NCBI GenBank assembly: GCA_038239115.1
Contig: JBBSFD010000012.1
Location: forward strand, 3,347 to 67,346
Length of the DNA stretch: 64,000 nt
Direction: 5' to 3'
Origin: Candidatus Limnocylindrales bacterium
Lineage (GTDB): Bacteria; Chloroflexota; Limnocylindria; Limnocylindrales; CSP1-4
Shown: positions 1-46,092 of the stretch, in pieces
Layout: each line of letters starts with the position of its first letter
Position numbering within the stretch: position 1 is the stretch's first letter
Translations under genes and position numbers: made by a program
The notes under the pieces: model-generated
What the model saw: the letters and a program-made list of their open reading frames with translations, nothing else
The model's database searches: none
What the model was told of the DNA's origin: nothing

Positions 1-447
1 GGCGTTCGTCGTCGGGTCCGCAATCCGAACGACCCGGAAGAGCTTCTGCTCAACGGGGACGGGCGCATGGCTGTTGTAGATCCGCCACTCGTTGCCATCG
101 GTCAGGGCGACCCACTCGACCCCGGCCATCGTCGCGTAGTTGAGGATCTGGGCGGCCCATTTGCCATCATTGAGATGGTTGCCCAACGACTTCGCCTCGA
201 TGAACAAGCGTGGTGCACGGAGCAGGAAGAGGGCATAGTCAACGGGGTTGTCCGCGGATCGCCGTCGGTACTCGAGCTTGACATCCTCGAGGTCCTCAAC
301 GTCCCAGCCCAAGGCCCGCAGGATCGGGACAATCAGGGCAGCTTTCGTATCCTGTTCGCCGATCGCCTGCCGCTCGTCCTTGGCAATCCGTTCGCGAACC
401 GCTTCGATCGCTCCGGCCAGGTGCGTTTCGTCCGCGCTCACCGCCAC
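1..447 (-). CDS. HsdR N-terminal-like (PD-(D/E)xK nuclease fold) domain protein, partial; C-terminus lies beyond window start
   Basis: Minus-strand translation from GTG at 447 reads VAVSADETHLAGAIEAVRERIAKDERQAIGEQDTKAALIVPILRALGWDVEDLE...LFIEAKSLGNHL...WVALTDGNEWRIY. This reproduces the E-x-DTK / IVP-L-LGW / IEAK / TDG-W-Y pattern of type I restriction R-subunit N-terminal domains (Pfam HSDR_N-like). The frame stays open to position 1, so it is not in the ORF track. Confidence 0.55.
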   Translation of the reverse strand, partial: MAVSADETHLAGAIEAVRERIAKDERQAIGEQDTKAALIVPILRALGWDVEDLEDVKLEYRRRSADNPVDYALFLLRAPRLFIEAKSLGNHLNDGKWAAQILNYATMAGVEWVALTDGNEWRIYNSHAPVPVEQKLFRVVRIADPTTNA

Positions 448-498
448 CCCCGATGCCCAAGGATTCGACTTTCACTGGAGCCTAACCCAAGTTGGGAT

Positions 499-515
499 AA
501 TCCGAACATCGGATT
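499..515. promoter_or_regulatory. 17-bp palindrome AATCCGAACATCGGATT between divergent HsdR_N-like and XRE genes; candidate operator
   Basis: Perfect 6-bp inverted arms (AATCCG/CGGATT) seen directly about 25 bp upstream of the XRE-family gene start at 542. Confidence 0.35.
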
Positions 516-541
516 AGCGTGCCGCCGGTGGCGCGGTACCC

Positions 542-784
542 GTGACGAGATCCCTGTTCAGCCCGGCCTATGGGCGACTTCGCGACTGGCTCATCCGAGC
601 TCGACGCGAGCAGGGACTTAGCCAGGCGGCCCTGACCGCAAAGCTCGGGCGACCCCAATCGTTCGTCTCAAAGTATGAGCGCGGTGAACGACGGCTCGAT
701 TTCGTCGAGGTTCTCGAGATCGCGGGCGCCCTTGACGGGGACGTGCTCGACCTTGTGAAAGCCGTTGGGCCGATTCGGCTCTAG
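542..784 (+). CDS. XRE-family helix-turn-helix transcriptional regulator (80 aa)
   Basis: LSQAALTAKLGRPQSFVSKYERGERRLDFVEVLEIAGAL is a canonical HTH_XRE (Cro/C1-type) motif. Confidence 0.75.
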   Translation: MTRSLFSPAYGRLRDWLIRARREQGLSQAALTAKLGRPQSFVSKYERGERRLDFVEVLEIAGALDGDVLDLVKAVGPIRL

Positions 785-888
785 GTATCTACGGCAAGTC
801 GCCACCAGGTGGTCATCGTGTCCGATCTGCCAACCTCGAAGGCGGAGCGAGTCTGGTCGTCCGGCCTCGACCGGTCCAGACTGCCGAG

Positions 889-1788
889 ATGACCGATCGA
901 CGCGTGATTTCGAGTCTCCTCCTCGCGGTCGTTCTCGTCGGCGGCTGCGGCATGATCGGGCAGATATCGTCCGCCGATATTGCCGGGCGCCGTACACAAG
1001 CGGCGGCCGTCCTTGCCCAATGGACGGCGGCACTCCCCCCGGTCGGTACATCGCCAGCGTTCGTTCCCGTGGGCGAACTCACCAGCCAGGTCGGCGACTG
1101 GGAGCTCTCCACCGGGGACAACAACAAGGTCGCCCTGATGGCCGGGGCGATCGAGGCCGCGGTCACATTGTCGGCCCAGACACCCCCTACTGCCGAGGTC
1201 CACTGGGACGACGGCACGACCCGGCCCGTGCCGACGATCTCGGCGGATCAAGCACTCGCCGCGATCCAGGGCGGCAACGGTGCTGCGACGTGCCCGGGCT
1301 GCACATCGATCCAGGTGATCGGCGCACAGTTCTCGACGGTGCGGATCGCCACCAGTCACGGGAGGGCAAGTGCCCCAGCGTGGGAGTTCGCCCTGGCCGG
1401 CACCGCGGTCCGGGTGACCCGGATCGCAGTCGCTCCTGCGGGGATGACCACCGTCGATCCTATGTCATTGGCGTCGAGCGGTGGGTGGCTCGGACCATCG
1501 ATCCAATCCGCGACAACGAAGACCGCAGGGCTGGCGCTGACCGTCACGTTCGTTGGCGCGCCCGACCCCGGCGACAAACCCTGTGGTGCCGACTACAGCG
1601 CGGAGGCCGCCGAGTCGTCGACGGCAGTTGCCGTGTTCGTGATCGAGCATCAGAGCCTCACCGTCGGGGCTTGCTCAGCCGTCGGGGCCCTTCGCACGGC
1701 GTCAGTCGGGCTCGCTGCACCGCTGGCAGGCCGCGTCGTTCTCGATGTCAACCAAGACATCCCGGTTCCCGTCGAGCTGATCCCCTGA
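889..1788 (+). CDS. hypothetical secreted lipoprotein
   Basis: N-terminal signal peptide with lipobox LLLAVVLVGGCG, followed by a Thr/Ala/Gly-rich extracytoplasmic domain. The overlapping 765..1982 ORF is Arg-rich and judged spurious. Confidence 0.5.
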   Translation: MTDRRVISSLLLAVVLVGGCGMIGQISSADIAGRRTQAAAVLAQWTAALPPVGTSPAFVPVGELTSQVGDWELSTGDNNKVALMAGAIEAAVTLSAQTPPTAEVHWDDGTTRPVPTISADQALAAIQGGNGAATCPGCTSIQVIGAQFSTVRIATSHGRASAPAWEFALAGTAVRVTRIAVAPAGMTTVDPMSLASSGGWLGPSIQSATTKTAGLALTVTFVGAPDPGDKPCGADYSAEAAESSTAVAVFVIEHQSLTVGACSAVGALRTASVGLAAPLAGRVVLDVNQDIPVPVELIP

Positions 1789-1914
1789 CGGGTCGGCTGC
1801 GCATGATCTCCGAATGGTGTGGCCGCCGCGGCGGGTTCCGGCGGCGGTTGCAACGATGGGGTGCAACAGTGGAGCCACCTCGGGTGTTAGACCTTGTGAA
1901 GGAGGACATCCCGA

Positions 1915-2412
1915 TTGGCAGAGGTCGCTCTGGGATCAGGTCGTGCCGCAACCTCGCTCGAGGCGGCGTTCCGTGCCCATGAGCCGTGGCTCGTGCGTCG
2001 CCTTGCCCTCGTGGTTGGCGATGCCGAGGAAGCCCGCGACCTCGCCCAACAGGTATTTGTTCGTGCGACTGAGCACTGGCCGCTGGCCCCCGAACAAGAC
2101 GTGGCGCGATGGCTTGCCGTCGTGGGTCTCCGCCTTGCCCTGAATGAGCGTCGGCGACGCAAGCGTTGGGGCTTTCTGGCGATCCGGGAAAGCGACGCCA
2201 CCTGGGCGCTCGAGGTGGACCCGGATCTATGGACGGCCCTTCGAGGCCTCGACGCCCGAACTCGAGTTGCTCTGGTGCTCACGGTCCTGGATGGATATAC
2301 GCAGGAGGAGGTCGCGACCGTGCTCGGAGTTCCGCGCGGCACTGTAGCGAGCTGGCTGTCGCGAGCCCGAGACCGCCTTCGGGTCGTGTTTGAGGAGCAG
2401 CCCGGTGACTGA
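1915..2412 (+). CDS. ECF-type RNA polymerase sigma-70 factor
   Basis: Region 2 (DAEEARDLAQQVFVRATEHW) and region 4 (LDARTRVALVLTVLDGYTQEEVATVLGVPRGTVASWLSRARDRLR) motifs typical of sigma-24/ECF factors. Confidence 0.8.
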   Translation: MAEVALGSGRAATSLEAAFRAHEPWLVRRLALVVGDAEEARDLAQQVFVRATEHWPLAPEQDVARWLAVVGLRLALNERRRRKRWGFLAIRESDATWALEVDPDLWTALRGLDARTRVALVLTVLDGYTQEEVATVLGVPRGTVASWLSRARDRLRVVFEEQPGD

Positions 2413-3508
2413 TCGATTCGACGCTTGGCTGGAGAAGGGCCTGCGTGACCTGGAGCGGGCCGTGCCAGTCGGTCAGTCGGTCGCCGGCAGGCTTGATCCT
2501 GCCACGCTGGTTCGCGTGTCTGGCAGGGGCACACGCTCGCTGCGCCCAGTAGGCTCCCTGATTGTTGCGGCCGTGGCAATCGTGATCCTGGCGATCCTCC
2601 TTCCCAGGTTCAATGCTGCGGTCCCGGGAGCCTCGCAAACGACCGCGCCGAGCCTCAGTCCGACCACAACAAGCCCCACGCCCGCGCCTTCATTCTCAGG
2701 CGAAGTCACCCACCAGCTGGGATCCCTCGCGATCGTGACCCCAACCAGCTGGCAGCTGATCGCCCCGTACAAGTGGAACGATCGGACGGGGCCCTTCCTG
2801 TTCGTCAGCAGTGCGGCTATTGCCGACCCGTGCCCGACCTCGAACCTCGGGCCGAAATGCATGACGCCTCTCGCCCAGCTCCCACCAGATGGAATCGTGG
2901 TCACGTTCTCCGGATTGTCCGCCACGAGTGGGCCGAATCCGTCCCCAATTCCGGTCGACGAGCCAGTAAATGGCGCATGCGCCACGATGCGCGGCGATCG
3001 CGAGCTCGGTGTCCGCATCCAGGGGTTTGACGTAGTCGCGTGCCTGCGTGGACCTGACTTCACCGCGAATGAAACCGCATTCGATCGGCTTGTTGCCTCG
3101 ATCCCGGGCCTGCCTCCGCCCCATGGAACAAGCGTCACGACGGCGTTCACCATTCCAGGGACTGGCATCACTCTGTCGCCGCCGGGCAACGTGGTCCCGG
3201 CAACTTCGAGCGACGCGGCCTACGGGCTTTGCCTGACCCCTGGCGGGGCCGCCTGCCAGCCGGGTCCGCCGACGAGCATCGTGCTTGCCCGCATCACCGA
3301 CACGGGATCCACGCTCGTCAAGCCCGGCATCCTGGTCTGGGCGATGGGCTGGATCGGGGTCACCACCTGCGTCTTCTCGGGCGGTGGACCACCCGGTCCC
3401 GGCAGTTCGCCTGTCGTGGCGACGAGTCAACCTCTGTGCGACGCGTACGACTTCATCGATGCCACTTCCGGAAAGTTCATCTTTGAGTCCGCGGGTCCGC
3501 ACAACTAG
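2390..3508 (+). CDS. putative anti-sigma factor / membrane-anchored Pro/Thr-rich extracytoplasmic protein
   Basis: Start (TTG 2390 or GTG about 2405) overlaps the sigma stop codon. Short cytoplasmic N-terminus, single TM helix (LIVAAVAIVILAILL), then a P/T/S-rich linker and Cys-containing exported domain. This is the usual position and topology for an ECF anti-sigma. Confidence 0.5.
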   Translation: MRSSPVTDRFDAWLEKGLRDLERAVPVGQSVAGRLDPATLVRVSGRGTRSLRPVGSLIVAAVAIVILAILLPRFNAAVPGASQTTAPSLSPTTTSPTPAPSFSGEVTHQLGSLAIVTPTSWQLIAPYKWNDRTGPFLFVSSAAIADPCPTSNLGPKCMTPLAQLPPDGIVVTFSGLSATSGPNPSPIPVDEPVNGACATMRGDRELGVRIQGFDVVACLRGPDFTANETAFDRLVASIPGLPPPHGTSVTTAFTIPGTGITLSPPGNVVPATSSDAAYGLCLTPGGAACQPGPPTSIVLARITDTGSTLVKPGILVWAMGWIGVTTCVFSGGGPPGPGSSPVVATSQPLCDAYDFIDATSGKFIFESAGPHN

Positions 3509-3662
3509 AGTCGGTGCTGCGGTCCCCGATCTCAGTCGCCGAGCCTAAGCATCAGGCGCAGAGCCCCACAGACGATTTGGCCATCGTGGGGGGTGCCGGG
3601 CCATTGCCGTATCGGTAACTTCCGAAGCCGGGATTTACATGAGAGGCTCGATTCTGTAAGTT

Positions 3663-4844
3663 GTGCGTATGAGCATCTCGCGGTCGACAACCCACCGAAA
3701 TGCCCCGGGAACGTTCGTCCGGGCGAGCCAGGACGGAGTCAAATATCGGGCATGGGTGCCCGCCCCCTTGCCCCCCACGTTGCTCTTCGACTCTGCGATG
3801 GTGACGGCCGTTGCAGATGCGTCGGCGGCTCTCGGCGAGCTGGCTGGTGTCGGACGGAATCTGCCGAACCCGCACCTGCTCCTTGGTCCGTTCATGCGCA
3901 AGGAGGCCGTGCTCTCGTCGCGGATTGAAGGGACACGGGCCACGATCACTGATCTCTACGCGTATGAAGCTGGTCAGTTGCCGCTGCCGGGAATGGAGGG
4001 AGATGATCGGGACGCGAGGGAGGTTCTCAACTACGTCGAGGCTCTCGAACATGGCTTGGCGCAAATCAAGGCCTACCCATTCTCCCTGTCACTTGTGGAA
4101 GACCTGCACAGATCCCTCATGCGAGCCGTCCGGGGTAGGGAGAAAACGCCTGGGGTCTTTCGCGTCCGACAGAACCTGATTGGGCAGCCAAACGCATCGC
4201 TCGAGACCGCGACGTACGTGCCGCCACCGACCATCCAAATGCAGGACTCGCTCCGCCAACTCGAGGCCTATGTCAAGGATCCCTCCGACGGGTATCCCAA
4301 GCTCGTGCGATTGGCCTTGATCCACTATCAGTTCGAAGCGATCCACCCATTCAACGATGGGAACGGACGAGTCGGGCGCCTACTCATGTCGCTGTTGACC
4401 ACGCATTGGAATTTGCTGCCCCTGCCGCTGCTTTACCTCTCGGCGTACTTTGAGGAGAACCGCGACCAGTATTACGACCTGCTCCAGGCCGTGACTGAGA
4501 GGGCGGCCTGGCAGGAATGGACAATGTTCTTTCTCCAGGGGGTGGCCGAGCAGTCGGCGGACGCGACGCTCCGCGCGAAGCGTCTCCAGGACCTGCGCGA
4601 AAGAATGCAGGAGGAGTTCGCAAAGGAGCGTGCATCAGCTTTGGCGGCACGCCTTCTCACCCTGCTCTTCGAGCGCCCCGTGCTAACTATCGCCAACGCC
4701 GCGGCGATGCTTGGCGTCAACTACCACAATGCCCGCCGACAGGTCCATCGCCTCGTGGAAGCTGGGATCTTGAGTCCGATACCCGGAAGGGGCCATCAGG
4801 ATCTTTATGCGGCTGCGGAGATCGTCGCGACGGTGCAGGACTGA
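3663..4844 (+). CDS. Fic family protein (AMPylase/adenylyltransferase-type), class II with internal inhibitory motif
   Basis: Canonical Fic motif HPFNDGNGRVGR (HPFx[D/E]GNGR). An upstream in-protein SRIEG matches the (S/T)xxxE(G/N) inhibitory helix motif. C-terminal winged-helix-like tail. Confidence 0.85.
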   Translation: MRMSISRSTTHRNAPGTFVRASQDGVKYRAWVPAPLPPTLLFDSAMVTAVADASAALGELAGVGRNLPNPHLLLGPFMRKEAVLSSRIEGTRATITDLYAYEAGQLPLPGMEGDDRDAREVLNYVEALEHGLAQIKAYPFSLSLVEDLHRSLMRAVRGREKTPGVFRVRQNLIGQPNASLETATYVPPPTIQMQDSLRQLEAYVKDPSDGYPKLVRLALIHYQFEAIHPFNDGNGRVGRLLMSLLTTHWNLLPLPLLYLSAYFEENRDQYYDLLQAVTERAAWQEWTMFFLQGVAEQSADATLRAKRLQDLRERMQEEFAKERASALAARLLTLLFERPVLTIANAAAMLGVNYHNARRQVHRLVEAGILSPIPGRGHQDLYAAAEIVATVQD

Positions 4845-5001
4845 CGGCATCCCGGTCTGCGCTGCGTGCGCCATAGCCTCTGGGCTAGAGACTCAACGAG
4901 AGACGCCACGCCACCGCACGGCAGGGCCCACACGATGTTGCTTTCGTGCTCGATCTGATCAATTGGTGTGAGCGTCCACTCCCGCTTAGGAGACCAGGTC
5001 C

Positions 5002-5934
5002 ATGTCCACTCCCCTCCTGCCTGCCCTCGCACCGGAAGACGCCCCAGCCTGGCAGAGCTCAGTCATGGCGTTCCTCGCGGAGAAGGAACGACGCTCAGGT
5101 TCGCGACGGACGGTCGAGGGCTACGCCCGGATGCTCTGGCCGTTCCTGAACCGGATCGGCTCGCCTACGCTGGTGACCCCGGCTCATGTCCTGGCCTGGG
5201 CTCACGGCATCGGGCTGTCGGGTCGGGAACCCTCCTCGGCAACGGTCGGCGCACGGATCGCCTGCCTCTCGAGCTATTTCCGGTTCTTGATCCGAATGGA
5301 GCTCGCCCGCTCCAATCCCTGTGACGCCCTCGAGCGCCCGAAGACGGTCCAGGCAACCGCTCGGGGACTTTCGGCTGATGAGGTTCGCCGGCTCCTGGCG
5401 GTCGTGCCGGACACCGTTGCGGGCCGGCGGGACCGAGCGATCTTGCTCGTCCTGATTCTCACCGGTCGCCGACGGGCCGAGGTGATCGGACTCAGCGCTG
5501 GAGACCTCAGCCTCAACGATGGGGTGCCCTTCTACAGCTACCGCGGCAAGGGCGGCAAGCGAGGTCGCCGCGAGCTGCCCCAACCGGCCTTCGAGGCGCT
5601 GTGCGCCACCGTCGGCGACACTGGACTGGAGCTCGGGTCGATGGAGCCGTCTGCGTCGCTCTGGCAGGCGGGCGCGGGATCTCGGGGCGTGACGAGCTCG
5701 ACGTTCTACTCGCGCTTCCGGACCTACCTTCGGCTCGCGGGCTTGCCGCCCTCAGGGATTCACCTACTTCGGCACTCCGCCGCGAAACTGCGGCGCGATG
5801 CCGGTGCCTCGATCGAGGAGGTCAGCTCGTTCCTCGACCATTCGAGCCTCGCGGTGACGAGCGTCTATCTTCGGCGGCTCGAAGGGGAGACCGATCGGAC
5901 ATGGGCTGACGTTGCGGCGGCGATCGGCCTGTAG
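5002..5934 (+). CDS. tyrosine-type site-specific recombinase/integrase (XerC/D / phage integrase family)
   Basis: N-terminal SAM-like core-binding domain. Catalytic region with RDRAILLVLILTGRRRAEVIGL (Arg I box), HLLRHSAAKLRR (HxxR) and terminal VTSVYL (Tyr nucleophile). Confidence 0.85.
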   Translation: MSTPLLPALAPEDAPAWQSSVMAFLAEKERRSGSRRTVEGYARMLWPFLNRIGSPTLVTPAHVLAWAHGIGLSGREPSSATVGARIACLSSYFRFLIRMELARSNPCDALERPKTVQATARGLSADEVRRLLAVVPDTVAGRRDRAILLVLILTGRRRAEVIGLSAGDLSLNDGVPFYSYRGKGGKRGRRELPQPAFEALCATVGDTGLELGSMEPSASLWQAGAGSRGVTSSTFYSRFRTYLRLAGLPPSGIHLLRHSAAKLRRDAGASIEEVSSFLDHSSLAVTSVYLRRLEGETDRTWADVAAAIGL

Positions 5935-5984
5935 GACCATCGGGGATCTTCTGACGAGGAAGCCCTGCCGCTACGCTCGGAGCG

Positions 5985-6763
5985 ATGGACTTGGACCGCC
6001 CAGACCCAACCAGCCTTGTCAGCCAAGACACCGACTCGGTGGCCGAGCCCGAGTCCGGCGCTGCTATCGATTCCGGGACGGCTGGCGGATCGGCTCGACG
6101 CGAGTACGAGCGGAGAGCCAACCAGCGCGACGAACGCACGAAGGCCCGCTGGGGCGGACGACTCGGTGGTGTCGTCCTCGCCTTGACCAACGAGCCCCTG
6201 TCGACGGCCGCGTGGGCCCGCGGAGCGGAGGGCGAAGAGAAGCTCGCCCGCGAACTAGCCGACCTCGAAGATGTCGTCGTCCTCCACGATCGCCGGATGC
6301 CCGGGACCAAGGCGAACATCGATCATCTTGTCGTCGCGCCTGGAGGAGTGTTCGTCGTTGATGCTAAGTACTACCACGGCCGGATCGCGATCCACGACAA
6401 GGGCGGCCTGTTCCGAAGAGATCCGCGCCTCTTCGTCGGCCGGCGCGACTGCTCGGGCCTGGCCGACGGAGCGCTGTGGCAAACGCAAATGGTGCCTCTG
6501 CGCTCGCGTCGATCGGCCGCGCGACTCCCCCGCCAGTCCCGGTCCTGTGCTTCCTCGATGGCGACTGGCCGATGATCCGGCCGCCAACTGCGTATCGAGG
6601 GGTTCGGCTCGAGAGCCCACGGTCGCTGAAATCGCTGCTCGTGAGGGCCTCCGCGATCGAGCGGTCTGAAGTTGATCCACTCGCCCGGCGGCTTGCTGCC
6701 GCCTTCCCCGCGAAGCAGCCGGGCGGTATCGTTGGATATGTGCCCCGGCGGCGGAACGGGTAG
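5985..6763 (+). pseudogene. NERD (nuclease-related domain) protein, apparently frameshifted
   Basis: VVLHDRRMPGTKANIDHLVVAPGGVFVVDAKYYHGRI is a NERD domain. The expected C-terminal continuation (ALASIGRATPPPVPVLCFLDGDWPMIRP...GVRLESPRSLKSLL) is present but in the +1 frame (ORF 6476..6763). The frame switch falls about 6485..6505. Confidence 0.55.
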
Positions 6764-6936
6764 GCGCGGCCGCGCGGCGCAGCTGGCGTGGGTCGCCGCG
6801 ACCCTTCCTGTCGAGGTTCAACTCCCGGCCCGATCACACTGCTCTGGCGAGGGCGGCAGACCGGACCAGATCGCACCCAGGGTTACCGGCCCCTTACCGT
6901 GCCTTCGGGCCCCCGGCTCTGTGATGCTACTTCGCC

Positions 6937-7338
6937 TTACCCCGGACTTGACGACTGCCCGGACTGACGACTGCCCGGACCCGCGTAAAGGTGATATCTC
7001 GGCAGCTCGAGGGATTCCCGCGCTCGCACATACGAAGAGCGCATGTGGCGATAGCCCGAATAGGTGGCGTCGGGGTGCGCATTATTCCAAGCTTCAAGAC
7101 GTTTCTCCCACGACCCGAGAGGGTTCCGAAGCACGAAGTTGACGAGCTCGATCGACCGACTGCCGATTGGCCGGTTGTGCCCGGGCAGGAGTTGCCGCTG
7201 TACCTGGCGGTATGCCTGAGTCACCGCCGCGACCGGCACCCAGGCGTCAACCTCCATGACGATTCGTACCCTGCGCCGGTCATCCTGGACACTGGTCTGC
7301 GGCACGCTGAGCATGAACGGCGTCGCCTGCGGGATCAA
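6937..7338 (-). CDS. hypothetical protein (133 aa), second gene of a two-gene operon
   Basis: Protein-like composition (WEKRLEAWNNAHPDATYSGYRHMRSSYVRARESLELPRYHLY). ATGA start/stop overlap with the upstream gene. The antisense ORF is less protein-like. No family recognised. Confidence 0.4.
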   Translation of the reverse strand: MIPQATPFMLSVPQTSVQDDRRRVRIVMEVDAWVPVAAVTQAYRQVQRQLLPGHNRPIGSRSIELVNFVLRNPLGSWEKRLEAWNNAHPDATYSGYRHMRSSYVRARESLELPRYHLYAGPGSRQSGQSSSPG

Positions 7339-7943
7339 GCTTCGAGCACGAACGAAGCCGCCTGCTCGGGCTGCCAGGGATAGACCAGGGCGAGCTGCTC
7401 AGCGAGCTGCCGGAGCTCATCGAGTGGCGAGCCGGCCCAGACGTGTAGGTCGTACGCGATATGGCCGTTCTGGTATTTGAGTAGCTCCAGCGTCTCCTTC
7501 GCCTTGCCGTGATGTGGTGCTCGCGCCTCGTCGGTGTCGAGATACGCCTCTGCCTCATCCCGGCTCATCGGGGACTCTCGCTCGAGAACCCGTCGCCGAA
7601 AGTCGAGGACTTCGGAACGACCTCCGGCACTCTCCGCAGCTAATCGACTTACGGCCTCGATCCGGGGAGCGAGTGCCGCTGGCTCCACCGTTCCTTGCGC
7701 CGGCGCCGAGTGGATCTGGCCGACTAAGCGAAGGAGCTGCTCGAGGCGGCCGAATAGGCGGTCCTCAGAGTCGGGATACTCCCGACTCAAGGCCTCAGCC
7801 ACGTAGTGGTCCTCGACCAGGAAGTCCCAGGCGGCGTCGGGGATGCCGCGCCCGAGACGCTTTGCCATTCGCCGACGCAAGGAAATGTGCGCGTTATTGG
7901 TTTGCACAACTCGCACTCTAGTCTCCGGGCGTCTAGCCAACAA
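7335..7943 (-). CDS. hypothetical protein (about 180-202 aa), first gene of a two-gene operon
   Basis: Non-repetitive acidic/helical sequence (AWDFLVEDHYVAEALSREYPDSEDRLFGRLEQLLRLVG...LELLKYQNGHIAYDLHVWAGSPLDELRQLAEQLALVYPW). No family recognised. Start uncertain (alternative M at residue 26). Confidence 0.4.
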   Translation of the reverse strand: MLARRPETRVRVVQTNNAHISLRRRMAKRLGRGIPDAAWDFLVEDHYVAEALSREYPDSEDRLFGRLEQLLRLVGQIHSAPAQGTVEPAALAPRIEAVSRLAAESAGGRSEVLDFRRRVLERESPMSRDEAEAYLDTDEARAPHHGKAKETLELLKYQNGHIAYDLHVWAGSPLDELRQLAEQLALVYPWQPEQAASFVLEA

Positions 7944-8014
7944 GAGCTGACGATCGGACGGACCTCGGCGATATGCGAGACCTCACATCGCTTCAACCTT
8001 GCTACGCGCACACG

Positions 8015-8066
8015 CATAGCAACGAGCTCTCTCTAGCAACCCTCCTCCAAGAAAGAGGTTGCTAGT
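8015..8066. promoter_or_regulatory. TAGCAAC repeat cluster: two direct copies plus a 9-bp inverted repeat CTAGCAACC(N15)GGTTGCTAG in a divergent promoter region
   Basis: Seen directly: catAGCAACgag, ctcTAGCAACcc, then GGTTGCTAG overlapping the TTG start of the 8059 gene. The region is locally lower in GC and sits between divergent operons 7943<- and ->8059. Confidence 0.35.
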
Positions 8067-8550
8067 GCTACGAGCAGCACCAAGGCGTCTGTCTAGGTCG
8101 GAGGTCCAGGCGCGGGTCGAGGCGGCGCCGGACTTCGTCGCGGGCTGGATCGCCGGACCGGAGCTCGACCAGCTCGTGGCGGGCTACGAGGCGATCACCG
8201 GCGTCAGAGTCCGGTCGTTCCGGAAGCGCGACCTCATCGCCGCGACCTCCCGCACGTGGGGCCCGCTCTTCCTCGACGCTCTTCAGCGGCGACTCGCCGA
8301 GAGCGGCACCGAGACGAACCTCCTGGCCGACTTGCGTTCAGGACCGCCGCGATCAGCGGTCTCCGTGCGCCACATCCATCCCGAAGCGCACTGGTCCTGC
8401 CCGTGCGCCGAGGAGAGTCTGCTTACAGACGTGATCTACTGCGCGGCTCATCGCCCACTGTTCGATCCGACCTCGAAGCGACGCTACGATCGCCATCCTT
8501 CGAACCCGGCGGCCGCCCGATTCTTCCCCGGTGCAGGTGGCTCGGGATGA
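8059..8550 (+). CDS. hypothetical protein, first gene of the recombinase operon
   Basis: ORF with His/Cys cluster HPEAHWSCPCAEESLLTDVIYCAAH. Its stop overlaps the start of the next ORF (ATGA at 8547-8550). Confidence 0.4.
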   Translation: MLVLRAAPRRLSRSEVQARVEAAPDFVAGWIAGPELDQLVAGYEAITGVRVRSFRKRDLIAATSRTWGPLFLDALQRRLAESGTETNLLADLRSGPPRSAVSVRHIHPEAHWSCPCAEESLLTDVIYCAAHRPLFDPTSKRRYDRHPSNPAAARFFPGAGGSG

Positions 8551-8708
8551 CCGTCGCGACCGAACCTCTGCCAATCCACCGGCCGGCGACCGTGGCTGAG
8601 TCTGCCTCCGACGCGCTCGAGGCGCGGCTTGCCGACTGGCTCGCGGCTGTTGCCCAGGAGGCGATCGCGCCACCGCTGCCGCCCGATGGATTCGAAGAGC
8701 CCATATGA
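8547..8708 (+). CDS. small hypothetical protein (53 aa); possible recombination directionality factor or accessory protein
   Basis: MTVATEPLPIHRPATVAESASDALEARLADWLAAVAQEAIAPPLPPDGFEEPI. ATGA overlaps at both ends (with 8059..8550 and with the serine recombinase at 8705). Below the 60-aa cutoff of the ORF track as an independent ORF. Confidence 0.3.
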   Translation: MTVATEPLPIHRPATVAESASDALEARLADWLAAVAQEAIAPPLPPDGFEEPI

Positions 8709-10198
8709 CCGTTGCAATCGCGGCCGAACCACGCATTCATGGACGGGTGAGCCAGCACCTGATCTACGTCCGCCGCTCGTACAAGGAGGCGACGGCCGCC
8801 GACGTGAGCGACGAGATGCAAGAAGCTGCCTGTCGAGCGCTCCTGCCAGCGGGCGTCACTGCCCGGGTGATCAGCGACTCCGGCGGCCACCCGTCGGGCT
8901 CGACCGCCGCCCGGGACGGCTACCAGGCGCTCCTGCGGGCAATCGCCGACGGCGAGGCCAGCGCGATCGTGGTCTACGACCTCTCGCGTCTGGCCCGTAA
9001 TGCCCGGCTGATGCTCGATCTCCACAGCCAGCTCGAACGCCAGCAGATCCCGCTGCTCGTGGCCAACATGCCCGGGGCGAGCTTCGATGGGGCCACCGGG
9101 CGCTACATGTTCGGGCAGCTCTGCCTCGCCGCGCAGCTCCAGCGCGACCTCGATTCCGAGCGGATGACCCGGATGCAGCACGGGCTGTTCGAGGATGGCC
9201 GCCATCGCGGGCATGATCCCTTCGGCTATCGGAGCCGACGCGATCAGTCGGGAAACCTGTGCCATCCCCGTGACCTCCTCGTCGTGGCCGAGGAGGCCGG
9301 GGTCGTCCGGCGGATCTGGGATGAGCTCACGGGCCGCTCCCTGGCCGAGATCGCCGAGCTGCTCAACCGCGAAGGGATTAGCCATCGCGTCGAGCGAGCC
9401 TGGACGCGGGAGGCGGTCAAGGACATCGTCCGGCGGGGCCGGATGTACCTCGGCTACGCGGTCGAGAAGCGCGGTCGAGACGAACGACGGGGCCGCCACG
9501 AGCCGATCCTGACCGAGGTCCAGTACGCCAGCGGGGTCGAGGCGATCGAGCGGCGACGACGCGTTGGCAACAAGCCCAAGCCGTTCCGCCATTACCTGCT
9601 GCGTGGCCTCCTGGTCTGCGCTTGTGGAACGAAGATGCGAGGGGAGGCCCACCTCCAGCGCGGGACGGAGCGCCGCTACTATCGCTGCCCGACCCTAGGC
9701 TGCCGGGCTCCCCGCTCGTTTGCCGGCGATCTCGAGGCCGAAGTCCTCGCCTCGATCGCCGAAGCCGTCCTGCCCGCCGCGGTGGTCGAGGCGGCGCGGT
9801 GCGAGCTGCGGCGGAGGCTTGAGACGCCCGAGCTCGTCACGGCCGGTCGTCAGCGCGAGCGCCTGCTCACCCGGCTTGAGCAGCTCAAGAAGCAGCACGG
9901 ATGGGGTGATCTCACCGACGCCGACTACCAAGCCCAACGCGACGCGGCCCGGACGACGCTCGCGGGGCTACCCGATGAGGACAGAGTCCGTTCGTTCGAT
10001 GCCTACCGGGCTCGGCTGTTGGCCCTACCCGAGGCGATCGCACTGGCGTCGCCTGCCCGCCAGGAAGAGCTCTGCCGGCTGCTCGTCGAACGGGTTCTCG
10101 TACGGGACCGCAGGGTCGAATCGATCGACTGGGTGCCCGCAGCACGGCCATTCTTCGAAAAACAGCGGGAGTGCCCCCAAGGGGATTCGAACCCCTGA
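8705..10198 (+). CDS. large serine recombinase (resolvase N-terminal catalytic domain + recombinase domain + zinc ribbon/coiled-coil)
   Basis: N-terminal IYVRRSYKE (catalytic Ser context) with resolvase-fold motifs (AIVVYDLSRLARN). Central recombinase domain. C-terminal Cys-rich LLVCACGTKMRG...YYRCPTLGCR zinc-ribbon. The last 27 nt overlap the 3' end of tRNA-Glu. Confidence 0.85.
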   Translation: MTVAIAAEPRIHGRVSQHLIYVRRSYKEATAADVSDEMQEAACRALLPAGVTARVISDSGGHPSGSTAARDGYQALLRAIADGEASAIVVYDLSRLARNARLMLDLHSQLERQQIPLLVANMPGASFDGATGRYMFGQLCLAAQLQRDLDSERMTRMQHGLFEDGRHRGHDPFGYRSRRDQSGNLCHPRDLLVVAEEAGVVRRIWDELTGRSLAEIAELLNREGISHRVERAWTREAVKDIVRRGRMYLGYAVEKRGRDERRGRHEPILTEVQYASGVEAIERRRRVGNKPKPFRHYLLRGLLVCACGTKMRGEAHLQRGTERRYYRCPTLGCRAPRSFAGDLEAEVLASIAEAVLPAAVVEAARCELRRRLETPELVTAGRQRERLLTRLEQLKKQHGWGDLTDADYQAQRDAARTTLAGLPDEDRVRSFDAYRARLLALPEAIALASPARQEELCRLLVERVLVRDRRVESIDWVPAARPFFEKQRECPQGDSNP

Positions 10199-10245
10199 TC
10201 TCCACCTTGAAAGGGTGGCGTCCTAGGCCTCTAGACGATGGGGGC
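10172..10245 (-). tRNA. tRNA-Glu (anticodon TTC)
   Basis: Minus-strand sequence GCCCCCATCGTCTAGAGGCCTAGGACGCCACCCTTTCAAGGTGGAGATCAGGGGTTCGAATCCCCTTGGGGGCA folds as a cloverleaf: 7-bp acceptor stem, D-arm, anticodon stem CCACC/GGTGG with loop CTTTCAA (anticodon TTC), T-arm AGGGG-TTCGAAT-CCCCT. CCA is not encoded. Confidence 0.85.
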
Positions 10246-10262: not shown

Positions 10263-10982
10263 TCAGGGCCTCGTGGCCGAGCCGCTCGTCCGACTCGCCC
10301 GCGCCGCCGGGATCCAGAGGATCCCATCGCCCGGCCAGACAAGATCGACTTCCTTCAGCGCGGCTTCGATGAGCGCCGACGCGACCGGGAATGCGGACGC
10401 AATCGTCTCGGGATGCTTGGCCACGATCTCCCGATGATGCCTCGTGGCCGGCAAGGCCAGGACAACGTGGATCGTCCGATCCGCAAGGGCACCTGACGCG
10501 AAGGCGTCACGCTTCACGTGCAGCTCGCGAATGATCTCCTCGAGGCTGCCGACCCGGGACTCGACCTCGATGAGGACGGTGCGTCCTGGCTGGTCGAGGC
10601 GCAGGTCGACCGACATGCGGGCGTTACCCGGGACAGACGCCTCCACGGTGCGCCGCCATCTCCGGTCCGTCATGGCCAGGATCGATTCGCCGATCGCGGC
10701 CTGGGCCGCGTCGCGGATCAGCGGCCCGCTTTGAGCGTAGGCGCTCACGCGCAGCTCGGCTCCCAGAAGCGCTGCCGCGCGAAAGCGGATCGGCAAGCTC
10801 ACCTGTGGGTCGCCACGCTCGAGTCGGGAGATCACCGTGCGGTCGATGGCGAGGGCGCGGCCGACTGCCGCCTGCGAGATGCCTGCTCGGAGCCTGAGCG
10901 CGGCGAGCTCGATTCCGAGGCGGTGGGCCTGAGCGCGGGCCTGCCGATCGCCTTCGCGCATTGCCGTCCGATTCGCGACCAT
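10263..10982 (-). CDS. XRE-family HTH transcriptional regulator with C-terminal domain of unknown function
   Basis: AGISQAAVGRALAIDRTVISRLERGD HTH_XRE motif near the N-terminus, then about 170 aa of non-repetitive sequence. Confidence 0.7.
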   Translation of the reverse strand: MVANRTAMREGDRQARAQAHRLGIELAALRLRAGISQAAVGRALAIDRTVISRLERGDPQVSLPIRFRAAALLGAELRVSAYAQSGPLIRDAAQAAIGESILAMTDRRWRRTVEASVPGNARMSVDLRLDQPGRTVLIEVESRVGSLEEIIRELHVKRDAFASGALADRTIHVVLALPATRHHREIVAKHPETIASAFPVASALIEAALKEVDLVWPGDGILWIPAARASRTSGSATRP

Positions 10983-12310: not shown

Positions 12311-13879
12311 TCAGCCCGGCAGGAGCACCACGCCGTATCGGGCGGGCACGACCAGGTCCAGATGACCATCGGCGCCCACGGTCGAGCCGGCCAGCCGGGC
12401 CTCCGGCTCATCGCGCGTCGCCACGACCGGGGCGAGCCGCTGCCCGGCCAGCTCGACGGCCTGGATCGTCAGCTCCGCGGCACCCTCACCGGCGTTGACG
12501 ATGACCAGGGCGGGCGGCGTTCCGGGCGGCAGATCGCTCAGCTCGTCCCATGCACCGGAGCGCAGGATCCCGATCGAATCGCCGGACGTGCCCGCGATCC
12601 GCAGGCCCCCATTGCGCAGGACCGGCTGCTCGTGGCGCAGGGCCAGGAGGGCCCGCATGTACGCCAGCGTCGGCTGGTCCCAGGCCGCATCGTCCCACGG
12701 GTAGGCCCGCCGGCAGTCCGGATCGTTGGCCCCTTCCATGCCGATTTCGTCGCCGTAGTAGATGCAGGGTGCACCGGGCAAGGTGGTCTGGAGCATGAAC
12801 GCCAGCCGGATCCCCGCTTCGTCCCGGCTGAGCAGGGTTCGGACCCGGGGGGTGTCGTGGCTGTCGAGGAGGTTGAGCTGGACCGCGTCCGTCTCGGGCG
12901 CATAGGCCGCCAGGACCGACACGATCCGGCCGGCCATCTCCGCGCCGCTCAGACGCACGATCCGCGAATACTCGGCGTGGCTGTGGACGATCTCGTTGTC
13001 CAGGTGGTGGGCCCCGGCATAGCCCAGGATCGCCTCGGCCAGCGGGTAGTTCATCGTGGCATCGAAGCGGTCGCCGGCCGTCCAGTCCGGCGCGACGTGC
13101 CAGATCTCGCCGACCAGGTAGGCCTCCGGGTTGACCGCCCGGACGCGCGCCCGGAAGGCCTGCCAGAAGGCTGGATCGGCGATCTCCTCGGGCACGTCCA
13201 GCCGCCAGCCGTCGATGCCGAACCTGACCCAGTGCTCGGCCACGGTCAACAGATAATCCCGGACCGGCTGGAAGTCGGTGTTGAGCTTGGGCAGGGCGGG
13301 CAGGCCCCACCACGCCTCGTAGCCGAGGCGGTCGATCGAGCTCGCCCCTTCGCCCGCCTGGCCGGGGGCCGGAATCGTGCGGCCGGTGTCCGGATAGGCC
13401 AGCAGCTGGACCCCGCCATCAAGCGCCGGGCGGTCCTCGCGGAACCAGTCAAGGTAGGGCGACGAGGCGCCGTTCTCGAGGACGTGGTGGAACGCCCAGA
13501 AGCCCCGTCCGGTGTGGTTGAACACGCCGTCGAGGACGACCCGTATGCCCCAGGCATGGGCCGCGTCGAGCAGCTCGCGCAGGGCCGCGTCGCCACCGAG
13601 CAGGGGGTCCACTCTGAGGTAGTCATAGGTGTGGTAGCGGTGGTTCGAGGCCGAGGCAAAGATCGGAGTGAGGTAGAGCGCCGTGATCCCCAGATCGGCG
13701 AGCATCGGCAGGTGCTCGGCGATTCCGAGCAGGTCGCCGCCCTTGAAGCCGTGGGTCGTGGGCGGGTCCGACCAGGGCTGGAGGTGACCCGGCTTGGGCA
13801 CCCGGTCACTGGCGGCGAAACGGTCCGGAAAGATCTGGTAGAAGACGGCATCGCGGACCCAGCGCGGCGTGTCGATCAC
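12311..13879 (-). CDS. glycoside hydrolase family 13 (alpha-amylase family) enzyme
   Basis: GH13 conserved regions: DGVFNH (region I), GWRLDV (region II, catalytic Asp), GEIWH (region III, Glu), LLDSHDT (region IV). Confidence 0.85.
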   Translation of the reverse strand: MIDTPRWVRDAVFYQIFPDRFAASDRVPKPGHLQPWSDPPTTHGFKGGDLLGIAEHLPMLADLGITALYLTPIFASASNHRYHTYDYLRVDPLLGGDAALRELLDAAHAWGIRVVLDGVFNHTGRGFWAFHHVLENGASSPYLDWFREDRPALDGGVQLLAYPDTGRTIPAPGQAGEGASSIDRLGYEAWWGLPALPKLNTDFQPVRDYLLTVAEHWVRFGIDGWRLDVPEEIADPAFWQAFRARVRAVNPEAYLVGEIWHVAPDWTAGDRFDATMNYPLAEAILGYAGAHHLDNEIVHSHAEYSRIVRLSGAEMAGRIVSVLAAYAPETDAVQLNLLDSHDTPRVRTLLSRDEAGIRLAFMLQTTLPGAPCIYYGDEIGMEGANDPDCRRAYPWDDAAWDQPTLAYMRALLALRHEQPVLRNGGLRIAGTSGDSIGILRSGAWDELSDLPPGTPPALVIVNAGEGAAELTIQAVELAGQRLAPVVATRDEPEARLAGSTVGADGHLDLVVPARYGVVLLPG

Positions 13880-13935
13880 ACCGTCAGCCTAACGGGCCGT
13901 CCGGGACGGAGTCGGCCCGGCTCGCGACGTGCTCC

Positions 13936-14301
13936 TTAGACCTCGTTCAACCAGGCCCGCACGCCAGGGGCCAGCAGGCCCCGGAAGAGGAGCACGGCAA
14001 GGGCGGCGAAGAACAGGGTGGCCGCAATCCGGGGCCCGGTCACGTTGAACGACAGCCAGGCCAGGGGGATCGCCGGCAGGGTCAGGGTGGCCAGGCCCAG
14101 GGCCAGGGTCCGGGCGGCTTCCTTGCGCTGGATCACCAGGGTCATCGTGAAGATGGTGTAGGCCAGCAGGATCATCACGATCACCCCGATTGGGCTGACC
14201 GGGGCCGAGATGGCCTGGTCGATCACGAAGCGCAGCGAGAGCCCGATGATCATGAGGATGAGCGAGCCGTAGACCAGGAAGATTCGAATGCCGTTGGGCA
14301 T
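13936..14301 (-). CDS. small integral membrane protein (4 TM)
   Basis: Start placed at the internal MPNGIRIFLVYGSLILMIIGL. The upstream part of the 258-aa ORF is Arg/Pro-rich and overlaps the divergent DUF3105 gene. Confidence 0.4.
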   Translation of the reverse strand: MPNGIRIFLVYGSLILMIIGLSLRFVIDQAISAPVSPIGVIVMILLAYTIFTMTLVIQRKEAARTLALGLATLTLPAIPLAWLSFNVTGPRIAATLFFAALAVLLFRGLLAPGVRAWLNEV

Positions 14302-14486
14302 GTCCCGCAGGGTCGGCTTAGCCGGCGGCTGCGCCCGCCCCCCGGACCTGGCTCGCTGTTTGCTCACCGCCTGATAATGCCATGACCCGCGCACGAGTCG
14401 GCCGGGGACGGTACCCTTGGCCGCCGAGGCCGCTAGATTGGCTTCATCGAGCCCTGTCGCCCCGTCGATCTGACCCTGAGGAAACC

Positions 14487-15575
14487 TTGAGCAAAGCATC
14501 CCGCCGCAGCTCACGGACCACCCGTGGAGTTCCGGCCAACCCGAATCGCAATCCGAATGGCCCGGCCGCGTCCAGCCCGCCGCCGCCCAGCGCGGCCGCC
14601 CCCGGCAGCGCCACGCCGACCGGTCAGGGCGCGAGCTCCGTCGTCCCGCCGATGGTCGTCTCGGTGCCGGCCTCGGGCGCCAAACCGGCCGCGGGCGCCA
14701 AGCCCGGCTCAACCAGGCCGGGCTCGACCAGGCCGCCGGCCAGCCGATCGTCGAGTCGCTCGGGCAGCTCGGGACGGCCCCGTCGGACGCTCTATCAGCC
14801 CTCGTTCTACCAGCGCCATCGAACAGTCCTGCTGAGCCTCGTTGTGGTGGCGATCGTGGCGGTCGTGGGCGCCTTCTTCTTCTTCAGCGCAACGGCCAGC
14901 GCCTATACCTGCACGACCATCACTCAGCCCCAGCCGTCCGGGACGCCCCTGCCCAACGGCTCGCCGGCCCTCGTCGGCCAGGCCCAGCCGGACATGGGCA
15001 ACCTGCACATCGCGGTGGGCTCGAATCAGCGCTACTCGTACTGCCCGCCGGCCTCCGGCCCGCACTACAACAACCCGGGCGTAGATGGCCCGATCCCGGC
15101 CAAGTTCTACGGCCCGGACGCCGGCACCCGGCCGGAAGGCTGGATCCACAACCTCGAGCACGGCGCGGTGGTGATCCTCTACAACTGCAACATGGGCGCC
15201 TGTACCGCGGAGAACCAGACCGCCTTGCAGGCGCTGACCGTGAACTTCCCGGATAGCCCGGTGTGCAAGGTCAAGGCTGGCGTGCTCGCGCCCGTCATCG
15301 CCCGCTTTGACAACATGCCCGAGCCCTATGCCGCCCTGGTCTGGGATCGCGTGCTGTATCTGACGAGTGTCGACCGCGACCAGATCCTCCAGTTCTACGC
15401 GACCGAGGCCGAGACCACGAACCCGGAGATGCAGTGCACCCGGCCGTCGCCCGGCCTGGCGCCGAGTGCGGCACCGAGCGGAGCCTCGCCCGCCGCCAGC
15501 CCGGTGGCAAGTCCGACAGCCAGCCCGACGCCCAGCCCGACGCCCAGCCCAACGCCCTCGGCCAGCCCGAGCTGA
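14487..15575 (+). CDS. DUF3105-family membrane-anchored protein with Pro/Ser/Thr-rich tails
   Basis: Conserved CPPASGPHY...WIHNLEHGAVVILYNC core typical of DUF3105. One TM helix (LLSLVVVAIVAVVGAFFFF). Start chosen at TTG 14487 preceded by GAGGAAA. C-terminal (SPTP)n low-complexity tail. Confidence 0.6.
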   Translation: MSKASRRSSRTTRGVPANPNRNPNGPAASSPPPPSAAAPGSATPTGQGASSVVPPMVVSVPASGAKPAAGAKPGSTRPGSTRPPASRSSSRSGSSGRPRRTLYQPSFYQRHRTVLLSLVVVAIVAVVGAFFFFSATASAYTCTTITQPQPSGTPLPNGSPALVGQAQPDMGNLHIAVGSNQRYSYCPPASGPHYNNPGVDGPIPAKFYGPDAGTRPEGWIHNLEHGAVVILYNCNMGACTAENQTALQALTVNFPDSPVCKVKAGVLAPVIARFDNMPEPYAALVWDRVLYLTSVDRDQILQFYATEAETTNPEMQCTRPSPGLAPSAAPSGASPAASPVASPTASPTPSPTPSPTPSASPS

Positions 15576-15577
15576 GG

Positions 15578-16480
<903 letters not shown>

Positions 16481-16484
16481 CAAC

Positions 16485-17558: not shown

Positions 17559-17559
17559 G

Positions 17560-20554: not shown

Positions 20555-20609
20555 GGCTTGGACCCGTGGGCTGGACGTCTGGGCCGAGAGCTCGGCTACC
20601 ATTCCGGGC

Positions 20610-46073: not shown

Positions 46074-46092
46074 GCTCGTGACAGGAGGTCGG

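Follow-up and report, generated by a model that had tools for sequence, protein, structure and literature searches.

What kind of element lies at the 3' end of a tRNA-Glu gene in a Limnocylindria chromosome, which recombinase brought it there, and where does it end? These questions are raised by a 64,000-nt stretch of Candidatus Limnocylindrales DNA (GCA_038239115.1, contig JBBSFD010000012.1, positions 3,347 to 67,346; hereinafter the window), in which a gene for a large serine recombinase (LSR) runs into the tRNA-Glu gene at about 10.2 kb. In 2015, the use of tRNA targets by serine integrases was "not known" (PMC4383910). The TIGER paper of 2020 computed t(m)RNA use for 14 of 297 serine integrases, described it as previously unreported, and called for experimental proof (PMC7192596). 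Comparison with related loci (designated here by L numbers) suggests that window positions 1 to ~10,184 are the tRNA-proximal end of a larger, decaying mobile element integrated by the LSR into a Limnocylindria genome, a reading to which we assign a probability of about 75%. Because the GC content of the window is high (~0.70), genes were called by GC3 and frame analysis and then confirmed by profile searches. The gene inventory and the tRNA-Glu(TTC) assignment of an earlier note, made from the bare sequence, agree with these searches and with ARAGORN and Rfam.

The LSR gene ends inside the tRNA-Glu gene

The tRNA-Glu(UUC) gene (TTC; 10171/10172-10245, minus strand) was detected by ARAGORN and Rfam (65.9 bits). 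The 497-aa LSR (8705-10198, plus strand) contains a Resolvase domain at residues 20-158 (Pfam, 1e-17), together with PF07508 (Recombinase, 2.6e-8) and PF13408 (zinc beta-ribbon, Zn_ribbon_recom, 6.9e-7), both above their cut-offs, and it matches a PHROG integrase family at 1.3e-63. The motif YVRRS25 is invariant in the alignment of the LSR family, and S25 is the predicted serine nucleophile. In the PDB, the LSR matches the catalytic domain of gamma-delta resolvase only (1e-5). It is distantly related to CcrB (NCBIfam, 3.2e-11), with remote similarity to XisF/CcrB models.

The earlier note placed the LSR gene against the tRNA gene. The two are indeed adjacent, but they do not merely abut: the last 28 nt of the LSR gene overlap the tRNA gene. 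Specifically, the LSR reading ...E K Q R E C P Q G D S N P is terminated by a stop codon positioned 28 nt into the tRNA gene, in antisense.

The same arrangement is found throughout the LSR clade. LSR homologues with 62-74% identity adjoin a tRNA gene in five genome loci (L023, L080, L055, L047, and L036). A metagenome scan retrieved 108 relatives, and 34 of these loci include the LSR C-terminus. The LSR end overlaps tRNA-Glu(TTC) in 27 of the 34 and tRNA-Arg(CCT) in one (49% identity), and the contig is too short in the remaining six. Thus, all 28 judgeable loci overlap a tRNA gene, and none of the 34 was scored as having no tRNA at the LSR end. A protein search (E <= 1e-30) gave 371 homologous clusters at 90% identity, virtually all of them derived from metagenomes of the Limnocylindria type. 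Among the best 120 clusters, in which the C-terminal tails were read, 96 have tRNA-antisense tails: 87 end in xPQGDSNP and nine in PQADSNR, which is the equivalent reading on a tRNA-Glu variant. In the family alignment, the C-terminal PQGDSNP is invariant. About 17 of the best 120 clusters continue from ...CPQG into ALGTRPLSDDASLAWYVA and have a total length of 509-512 aa.

A sister LSR clade (~49-51% identity) ends antisense inside tRNA-Arg(CCT) (L133, 11473-11546; also L139, L135, and L140). On these sequences, switching of the target between tRNA genes within the LSR family is indicated.

Relatives with an empty tRNA-Glu site

An alpha-amylase-family gene (12311-13888), which encodes a core protein of the right flank, has relatives solely in metagenome-assembled genomes of Chloroflexota, mostly "Candidatus Limnocylindrales" (best identity 78%), and the host lineage is Limnocylindria. 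The tRNA-Glu(TTC) gene lies 1-2.4 kb beyond the amylase gene in about 45 of 50 scanned relatives. Because this synteny is kept, the right flank represents conserved chromosome.

About 20 of the 50 relatives retain the amylase-tRNA-Glu neighbourhood with a tRNA gene that encodes its CCA and without a recombinase, namely an empty site. The closest of these is L002, with 78% amylase identity. Empty tRNA genes end in ...CCCCTTGGGGGCA-CCA (...GGGGGCA-CCA) and are followed by a variable, lineage-specific flank. Occupied tRNA genes end in ...CCCCTTGGGGGCAC-TCCCGCTGTYTTTCGAAGAA (the junction can also be written ...GGGGGCAC/TCCCGCTGT), which is the reverse complement of the last codons of the LSR. In other words, an attP-type end, ...GCAC-TCC, replaces ...GCA-CCA. 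Occupied tRNA genes are without an encoded CCA because the copy supplied by the element reads ...GCAC-TCC. Accordingly, the tRNA-Glu gene of the window is intact, its last ~13-14 nt are derived from the element, and its encoded CCA is lost.

The composition of the region is also foreign. GC content is 0.61-0.68 in 1-10 kb compared with ~0.70 in the core, and the tetranucleotide distance reaches z = 9-12 for 1-10 kb compared with ~0 for 12-45 kb, so that the island deviates from the flanking core genes by both measures. Together with the empty-site relatives, this deviation bears out the proposal of the earlier note that a horizontally acquired element lies at the 3' end of tRNA-Glu.

Insertion scars were observed at the tRNA-Glu 3' flank of L045, L019, L028, L042, and L021, which retain 11-50 nt of the LSR 3' end without an LSR gene. 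In L045, a 4.8-kb insert with ordinary-looking genes lies between the tRNA gene and a flank that is conserved in empty sites. When the host genes that flank empty sites were sought on the island side of the occupied loci, the remnant locus L045 was the only one that could be bracketed.

attP, attB and attL share a 14-nt core

The structure of attP was read in un-recombined relatives, not in the window. Three contigs with a long-tail LSR (L170, L171, and L172) have no tRNA at this place and carry a symmetric attP, ACAGCGGGAGTGCCCCCAAGG-GG-CCTCGGGCACCCGCCCGCTGT. In L171, the attP arms are 21 nt long, 76% complementary, and 2 nt (GG) apart; in L170, the arms are 10 nt long and 28 nt apart. Intact attP sites are located at 7640-7720 of L170 and 11440-11500 of L171, and a further one is in L172.

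We aligned attL (window, L023), attP (L170, L171), and attB (L002, L020); all features of the junctions, empty sites, attP forms, and inverted arms, like the association of LSR with tRNA, were established in silico. attL consists of the left half of attP and the right half of attB, and all three sites share a 14-nt core, GTGCCCCCAAGGGG. In the window, attL (10150-10210) comprises the P' arm, formed by the LSR 3' end (...ACAGCGGGA), the core (10171-10184), and the B arm, which runs from the tRNA T-loop onward. On the tRNA strand the core reads CCCCTTGGGGGCAC and covers the 3' strand of the T-stem, the 3' strand of the acceptor stem, the discriminator, and one C. Because GG is the centre of symmetry of attP, the crossover is predicted at GG, window positions 10183-10184 and tRNA positions 61-62, at the border between T-stem and T-loop.

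Two other placements were rejected. A crossover at the extreme 3' end of the tRNA (A73/C74) with a 2-nt repeat had been derived from TTCGAA motifs symmetric around 10172/10173; it was overturned by the 14-nt core of attP and the 21-nt arms centred on GG. A TTCGAA-containing tRNA-like stretch at 8691, upstream of the LSR start, was considered as an internal att site and turned out to be unique to the window copy.

The att sites suggest the following mechanism. The LSR would recombine attP of the element with an attB inside the tRNA-Glu(UUC) gene. The P' arm is the 3' end of the LSR open reading frame (ORF) and bears a 14-nt copy of the tRNA 3' end. The crossover would then have three consequences: a full-length tRNA gene would be rebuilt, without a genomically encoded CCA; the native tRNA 3' end would be moved to the far junction (attR); and the last ~16 codons of the LSR would be replaced by four codons and a stop read antisense from the T-arm (...CPQG/DSNP-stop). 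attR would be expected to have the form [host flank]-TGG-TGCCCCCAAGG-GG-[P arm with ...CCCGCTGT]. In this integration model, the LSR has two alternative C-termini because its ORF crosses the crossover point. The integration-dependent exchange of C-termini (four compared with ~16 residues) could conceivably act as a switch on the activity or directionality of the recombinase.

The Xer-like recombinase and the choice of integrase

The element also encodes a 310-aa Xer-like tyrosine recombinase (Yrec; 5002-5934, plus strand; Pfam Phage_integrase), which scores below the XerC and XerD cut-offs. Where tRNA genes are targets, the integrase is overwhelmingly of the tyrosine type (PMC4383910; PMC7192596), and Yrec is present in most relatives: homologues were found in 21 fetched loci, and the gene maps place them 2-6 kb from the LSR, mostly in the same orientation, in 14 of ~19 loci with enough upstream sequence. 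The attP-form contig L171 carries Yrec as well. The locus could thus be read as a classical tRNA island integrated by Yrec, in which the serine recombinase is a resolvase or invertase passenger. However, Yrec lies 4.2 kb from the junction, is missing in about five of 19 long loci, and is inverted in L097, whereas the LSR always overlaps the tRNA gene and has the Recombinase and zinc-ribbon domains of integrase-type LSRs. In addition, the symmetric attP is located at the LSR 3' end, and the sister LSR clade overlaps tRNA-Arg. We regard integration by Yrec as extremely improbable. Judged from its domains and att sites, the LSR and not the tyrosine recombinase is the integrase of the element, with a catalytic activity that is predicted.

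Probable extension of the element to the left of the window

The earlier note set the left limit at ~455 and the size at 9.7 kb. This limit was not upheld. The repeat at that place is at chance level, the window contains no attR, the composition is foreign down to base 1, and the leftmost nuclease gene travels with such elements elsewhere. We conclude that 9.7 kb is a minimum and that the element continues to the left of base 1; its far end is probably outside the window.

The leftmost gene (1-471, minus strand) is the N-terminal part of a nuclease gene and not a housekeeping gene. Its HSDR_N domain (Pfam) is of the PD-(D/E)xK type, and it matches a PHROG endonuclease family at 9.6e-18. A 2-kb Logan contig from the same sample (L162) reaches 736 nt further left and contains the full gene, which encodes a 375-aa HSDR_N + RAMA nuclease. 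We rejected its identification as a type I HsdR, since the full protein of 375 aa has only HSDR_N and RAMA and its EcoAI-family score is 15.7 against a cut-off of 550. The RAMA nuclease partially matches the candidate defence model PDC-S14 (PADLOC) and belongs to a family of > 1200 clusters. Divergent from it lies a gene for an 80-aa XRE/Cro-type helix-turn-helix (HTH) regulator (XRE80; 542-784, plus strand; Pfam HTH_3, 2.4e-9; PADLOC Control_protein, 5.5e-7), which resembles the control (C) proteins of restriction-modification (R-M) systems.

Both genes are conserved in L093, where they lie ~9.5 kb from an LSR. The RAMA nuclease is 78% and XRE80 75% identical between the window and L093, compared with 71% for the LSR, 68% for Yrec, and only 55% for the host amylase. 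RAMA nuclease homologues occur near LSR/Yrec elements in L093/L169 and in L173/L174, and the order tRNA, LSR, Yrec, Fic, RAMA nuclease recurs in the independent element L173/L174. On L169, the contig of L093, the DNA beyond the RAMA nuclease (12545-21140) encodes an MmeI-family type IIL R-M enzyme, complete at 933 aa, as well as a Kelch-repeat protein and an RHS/YD-shell toxin of 2941 aa. L171 likewise has an RHS toxin, 7 kb beyond attP.

A self-contained island of ~9.7 kb, bounded by the tRNA gene and a degenerate tRNA-derived repeat at ~455, would draw on a partial match, CCCAAGG-ATTCGA, at 455-470, which is intergenic and oriented like the tRNA 3' end. As attR this direct repeat was rejected: chance matches elsewhere in the window align with higher scores, and L093 lacks it in the homologous intergenic region, although both flanking genes are conserved there. 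Moreover, attP shares a 14-nt core that ends at the T-loop, and a displaced fragment would not place ATTCGA beside element DNA in that way. Neither a second copy of the core (TGCCCCCAAGGGG, <=2 mismatches) nor the P-arm motif was found elsewhere in the 64-kb window, and the compositional deviation, which is strongest at 1-5000, never returns to host values. A boundary at ~455 is therefore very unlikely, and the larger element remains the preferred reading.

A repeated palindrome and the cargo operons

Upstream of Yrec, the homology between elements has a sharp start, an 18-bp palindrome (CACGAT-N6-ATCGTG) directly adjoining a -35-like TTGCTT. The island contains four copies with 1-2 mismatches, which lie 71-113 nt upstream of plus-strand genes for a lipoprotein, a sigma factor, Fic, and Yrec. 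The first (803-820, 2 mismatches) is 86 nt upstream of the gene for a 299-aa predicted lipoprotein (889-1788, plus strand), identified from its sequence by a signal peptide with ...LVGGC. The second, a degenerate copy (1802-1819, 2 mismatches), is 113 nt upstream of the gene for an extracytoplasmic function (ECF) sigma factor with regions 2 and 4 (1915-2412, plus strand; Pfam Sigma70_r2 and r4_2; TIGR02937, 61 bits, above cut-off). The third (3571-3588; GACGAT-N6-ATCGTG, 1 mismatch) is 92 nt upstream of the gene for a class II (SoFic-type) Fic AMP-transferase (3663-4844, plus strand; Pfam Fic_N and Fic; PADLOC SoFic). The fourth (4931-4948) is a palindrome-derived site (CACGATG/TTGCTTTC) that opens the conserved Yrec promoter block.

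The palindrome is enriched in elements. Per 10 kb, copies with <=1 mismatch number 1.13 where LSR loci consist of element DNA, 0.21 on the host side of these loci, and 0.06 in 1.19 Mb of LSR-free relatives, an enrichment of ~19-fold for the element side over LSR-free host loci. At the same threshold there are zero copies in the window from 10.3 to 64 kb. L173 has palindromes at 7131, 10634, 11094, 12264, and 18550; across the window and L173, they lie 70-190 nt upstream of cargo genes. From its placement, the palindrome is probably an operator through which a regulator encoded by the element controls the cargo operons as one regulon. A quite different and rather unlikely role is that Yrec and the 18-bp palindromes form a cassette-exchange platform nested in the LSR-integrated element, analogous to integrons or pdif modules. 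Such a platform, if real, would explain the variable cargo between backbone blocks and the start of homology at the Yrec palindrome. The homology between the window and L093 does not end at a palindrome, which weakens the reading of palindromes as cassette boundaries.

The cargo itself is modest. The Fic protein matches PADLOC SoFic over profile positions 5-358 of 361 (E=8.7e-112), and both the catalytic motif HPFNDGNGR and the N-terminal inhibitory S-x-x-x-E-G motif (SSRIEG) are intact in the translation. Its score against the NCBIfam SoFic equivalog, 186 bits, is under the 550 cut-off. Class 2 Fic proteins ("Sofic") have been described as abortive-infection defence (PMC12249575). The 299-aa lipoprotein has no match in Pfam, NCBIfam, PADLOC, or PHROG. 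The gene that overlaps the sigma factor gene (2390-3508, plus strand) encodes a 372-aa membrane-anchored protein, a putative anti-sigma factor, for which neither a Pfam match nor an anti-sigma domain match was obtained. It belongs to a rare two-module family, with only 109 matches in 1.84 billion representatives; each module is also found without the other. No defence signature was found for the sigma factor, the 372-aa protein, or the lipoprotein. The suggestion of the earlier note that the cargo is of the defence or addiction type therefore holds for the class II/SoFic-like Fic, the sole clear defence gene; it does not hold for most of the uncharacterised ORFs, which are backbone and not cargo. 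As a defence island, the copy in the window is ordinary, with one SoFic-type gene, one RAMA nuclease, and pseudogenes.

The abrupt stop of inter-element homology at the palindrome upstream of Yrec could also mark a seam. According to this reading, a compact LSR-Yrec module (~4.9-10.2 kb) was inserted between the tRNA gene and an older, unrelated island that contained Fic, the sigma/anti-sigma pair, XRE, and the RAMA nuclease. The variation of the cargo between Yrec and XRE80/RAMA among elements would fit such a history, and so would the status of the tRNA-Glu 3' flank as a hotspot with several insertion generations, of which LSR 3' stubs remain in L045, L019, L028, and L042. On the other hand, attL is a B/P' hybrid and no attB is left after integration, so that simple tandem accretion by the LSR is not expected. 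No internal att remnant was found between the Fic gene and Yrec. Furthermore, the order LSR...Yrec...Fic...RAMA recurs in independent elements (window, L093, and L173), the element-enriched palindrome is present on both sides of the Yrec boundary, and the attP-form L171 bears Yrec and cargo-like upstream genes in one piece. We thus consider a composite origin unlikely, and less likely than one element.

Backbone genes and decay of the window copy

Between Yrec and the LSR lie genes that recur in other elements. A 53-aa ORF (8547-8708, plus strand; gene call on L001) overlaps the LSR start by ATGA and is translationally coupled to the LSR. Its motif (R)LA-WLA-(D)V(S)-EA is conserved, the upstream ORF and the start/stop overlap are kept across loci, and BLASTP aligns it with the small ORF of L023 at E=3e-4. 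It is a candidate accessory or directionality factor. Upstream of it, a 163-aa protein (8059-8550, plus strand) represents a family of 160-220 aa that occupies the same place, upstream of the small ORF and the LSR, in L093, L098, and L113. A link of this protein to a truncated AAA_25 replication protein or helicase was rejected, having arisen artificially from single-linkage clustering. Divergent from the LSR operon, a backbone gene of an orphan family of ~320 aa (6937-7943, minus strand) is split into two ORFs, 6937-7338 (133 aa) and 7335-7943 (202 aa), with the break at ...VLEA-stop and MIPQ...; its product is helical and has weak HTH-like fold matches. Two of the uncharacterised ORFs of the earlier note are thus halves of a single split gene.

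The element would thus have a backbone near the integrase, composed of the coupled 53-aa ORF, the 163-aa protein, the divergent 320-aa HTH-like protein, and the Xer-like Yrec, with cargo operons beyond. The idea that the unannotated genes form an undescribed defence module was not sustained, because the 53-aa, 163-aa, and split 320-aa genes are conserved backbone that accompanies the LSR, and none has a PADLOC match.

A NERD-domain gene next to Yrec (5985-6763, plus strand; Pfam NERD) is a frameshifted pseudogene. The Pfam match in the ORF at 5985-6575 covers profile positions 1-70 of 111, and the domain resumes in another frame at 6476-6763, which confirms the frameshift reported in the earlier note. 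With a frameshift in the NERD gene and a break in the 320-aa gene, the window copy is, as read from its genes, decaying, in line with the earlier suspicion of decay.

A different serine recombinase of 498 aa was observed at L163 (7178-7215; also L164-L167) beside a homologue of the 320-aa family and a Yrec. The last part of its gene is a tRNA-like 3' fragment of 22 nt (TGGTCGGGGCGAGAGGACTTGA); no tRNA is attached, and none was found in 17 kb.

Phage-like and replication genes in relatives

No capsid, portal, terminase, or other virion or packaging gene was found in window 1-10.2 kb by Pfam and PHROGs, and no IMG/VR contig contains a relative. To this extent the description of the locus as a non-phage island stands. 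As a statement on the element it is unproven, since the attP-form relatives carry terminase-like genes. Specifically, the conserved genes just beyond attP in these relatives encode an N6/N4 DNA methyltransferase, a TerS-like protein (phrog_4044, 4.2e-21), and a TerL-like protein (phrog_2, 5.5e-24; Pfam Terminase_6N, borderline at threshold). No capsid genes were found within 10 kb in the attP-form relatives. In an integrated copy, the methyltransferase, TerS-like, and TerL-like genes would adjoin attR; these genes were sought in the window and in all loci as attR-proximal markers, and none was found. The gene content of the relatives makes a satellite-like or defective-prophage ancestry possible.

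L171 and L172, which derive from one sample, encode an identical LSR and agree in every gene 3' of attP, but not in the genes 5' of the LSR.

The earlier note also stated that replication genes are absent. None is recognisable in the window copy, but the absence is not a family trait: relatives have AAA_25, PrimPol-D5, or DUF3987 proteins beside the LSR, and L171 encodes a primase/helicase-like protein. In the window, the 163-aa protein takes the place of these replication-type proteins beside the LSR.

Other features of the window

A 239-aa XRE-family protein with an uncharacterised C-terminal domain is encoded at 10263-10982 (minus strand). Of the XRE regulators that the earlier note assigned to the island, the gene at 542-784 belongs to it, but this one lies outside the element, on the 5' side of the tRNA gene, and is common to the empty-site relative L002. 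It is shared solely with L002, the closest relative, at 65% identity. Most relatives have a shorter interval between amylase and tRNA than the window, and the 239-aa XRE gene may be a separate small insertion.

A second atypical stretch is located at 45000-57000 (tetranucleotide z ~10; GC 0.62 at 51-54 kb). It encodes LexA, DnaB, a treble-clef zinc-finger protein, dodecin, a 181-aa orphan, an HD-GYP/MASE9 protein, and a DUF5317-MFS fusion. At 49480-52515 there is a gene for a 1011-aa AAA_16/STAND-like NTPase with a C-terminal Trans_reg_C domain.

Discussion

Several points weigh against an LSR-integrated element that extends beyond the window. No attR was found within 10-22 kb of any integrated relative, and the full size of the element and the displaced tRNA fragment were never seen. 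The position of the crossover within the 14-nt core depends on the symmetry of attP alone. The LSRs in attP form lie mid-contig (contigs of 66-111 kb), so that a free replicon is not established. The cargo left of Yrec could belong to a separate, older island, and the conserved Yrec could in principle contribute to integration.

The closest described system is that of the ssrA-specific islands of Dehalococcoides, in which the gene of the CcrB-like DsiB contains the tmRNA repeat and insertion was mapped to the T-loop (McMurdie et al. 2011, PMC3146451). As in those islands, a Chloroflexota host carries a CcrB-like LSR at the edge of the element, which is inserted in the T-loop region at the 3' end of a gene for a small structured RNA; a target-derived repeat is embedded in the integrase gene, and the cargo is variable. 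The target here is tRNA-Glu (tRNA-Arg in the sister clade) and not tmRNA, and the core is 14 nt and not 20 nt long. Unlike the DsiB islands, whose module also includes RecF-like genes, window 1-10.2 kb has neither a second Resolvase-domain protein (DsiA) nor ParB/Mom, and the backbone contains an Xer-like Yrec instead. Tandem arrays with repeated direct repeats were not seen.

The LSR shares the Resolvase + Recombinase + zinc-ribbon architecture of the phiC31, Bxb1, A118/LI, and TP901-1 integrases, and its attP likewise has imperfect inverted arms around a non-palindromic dinucleotide. As with phage-type LSRs, terminase-like genes lie beyond attP in the attP-form relatives. It differs from these enzymes in its very remote sequence, its tRNA target, the 14-nt copy of the target in attP that repairs the gene, and a C-terminus that depends on the state of integration. 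Like classical tRNA islands (Islander/TIGER), the element has an integrase gene that adjoins an intact tRNA gene with an element-supplied 3' end, has empty-site counterparts, and carries accessory cargo. In contrast to them, the integrase is a serine and not a tyrosine recombinase, and the displaced tRNA fragment was not found in the 64-kb window or within 10-22 kb in relatives. Integration at the extreme 3' end of a conserved gene, which is preserved by a direct repeat of ~15 nt, is reminiscent of SCCmec/CcrAB. That system differs in that a single recombinase, an RNA-gene target, another phylum, and other cargo are found here. Finally, the Fic protein is like SoFic defence proteins in its full-length PADLOC match and its intact catalytic and inhibitory motifs, and unlike them in scoring below the NCBIfam equivalog cut-off.

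The locus is therefore a serine-integrase island at a small RNA gene and not a categorically new system. Its interest is the tRNA-targeting LSR clade with reconstructable att sites, rather than the cargo. With attL known from integrated copies, attB from empty sites, and attP from un-recombined relatives, every att site can be resolved down to single nucleotides. For annotation, searches of the Islander type, which look for a tyrosine integrase and a long tRNA repeat, would miss such islands. The LSRs of this clade are candidate recombinases with a short, defined, and highly conserved target, and could serve as tools. For the biology of the family, the clade offers a natural system for how an LSR would recognise a tRNA gene and repair its target via a 14-nt mimic, and what appears to be an integrase that acquires a different C-terminus when it integrates.

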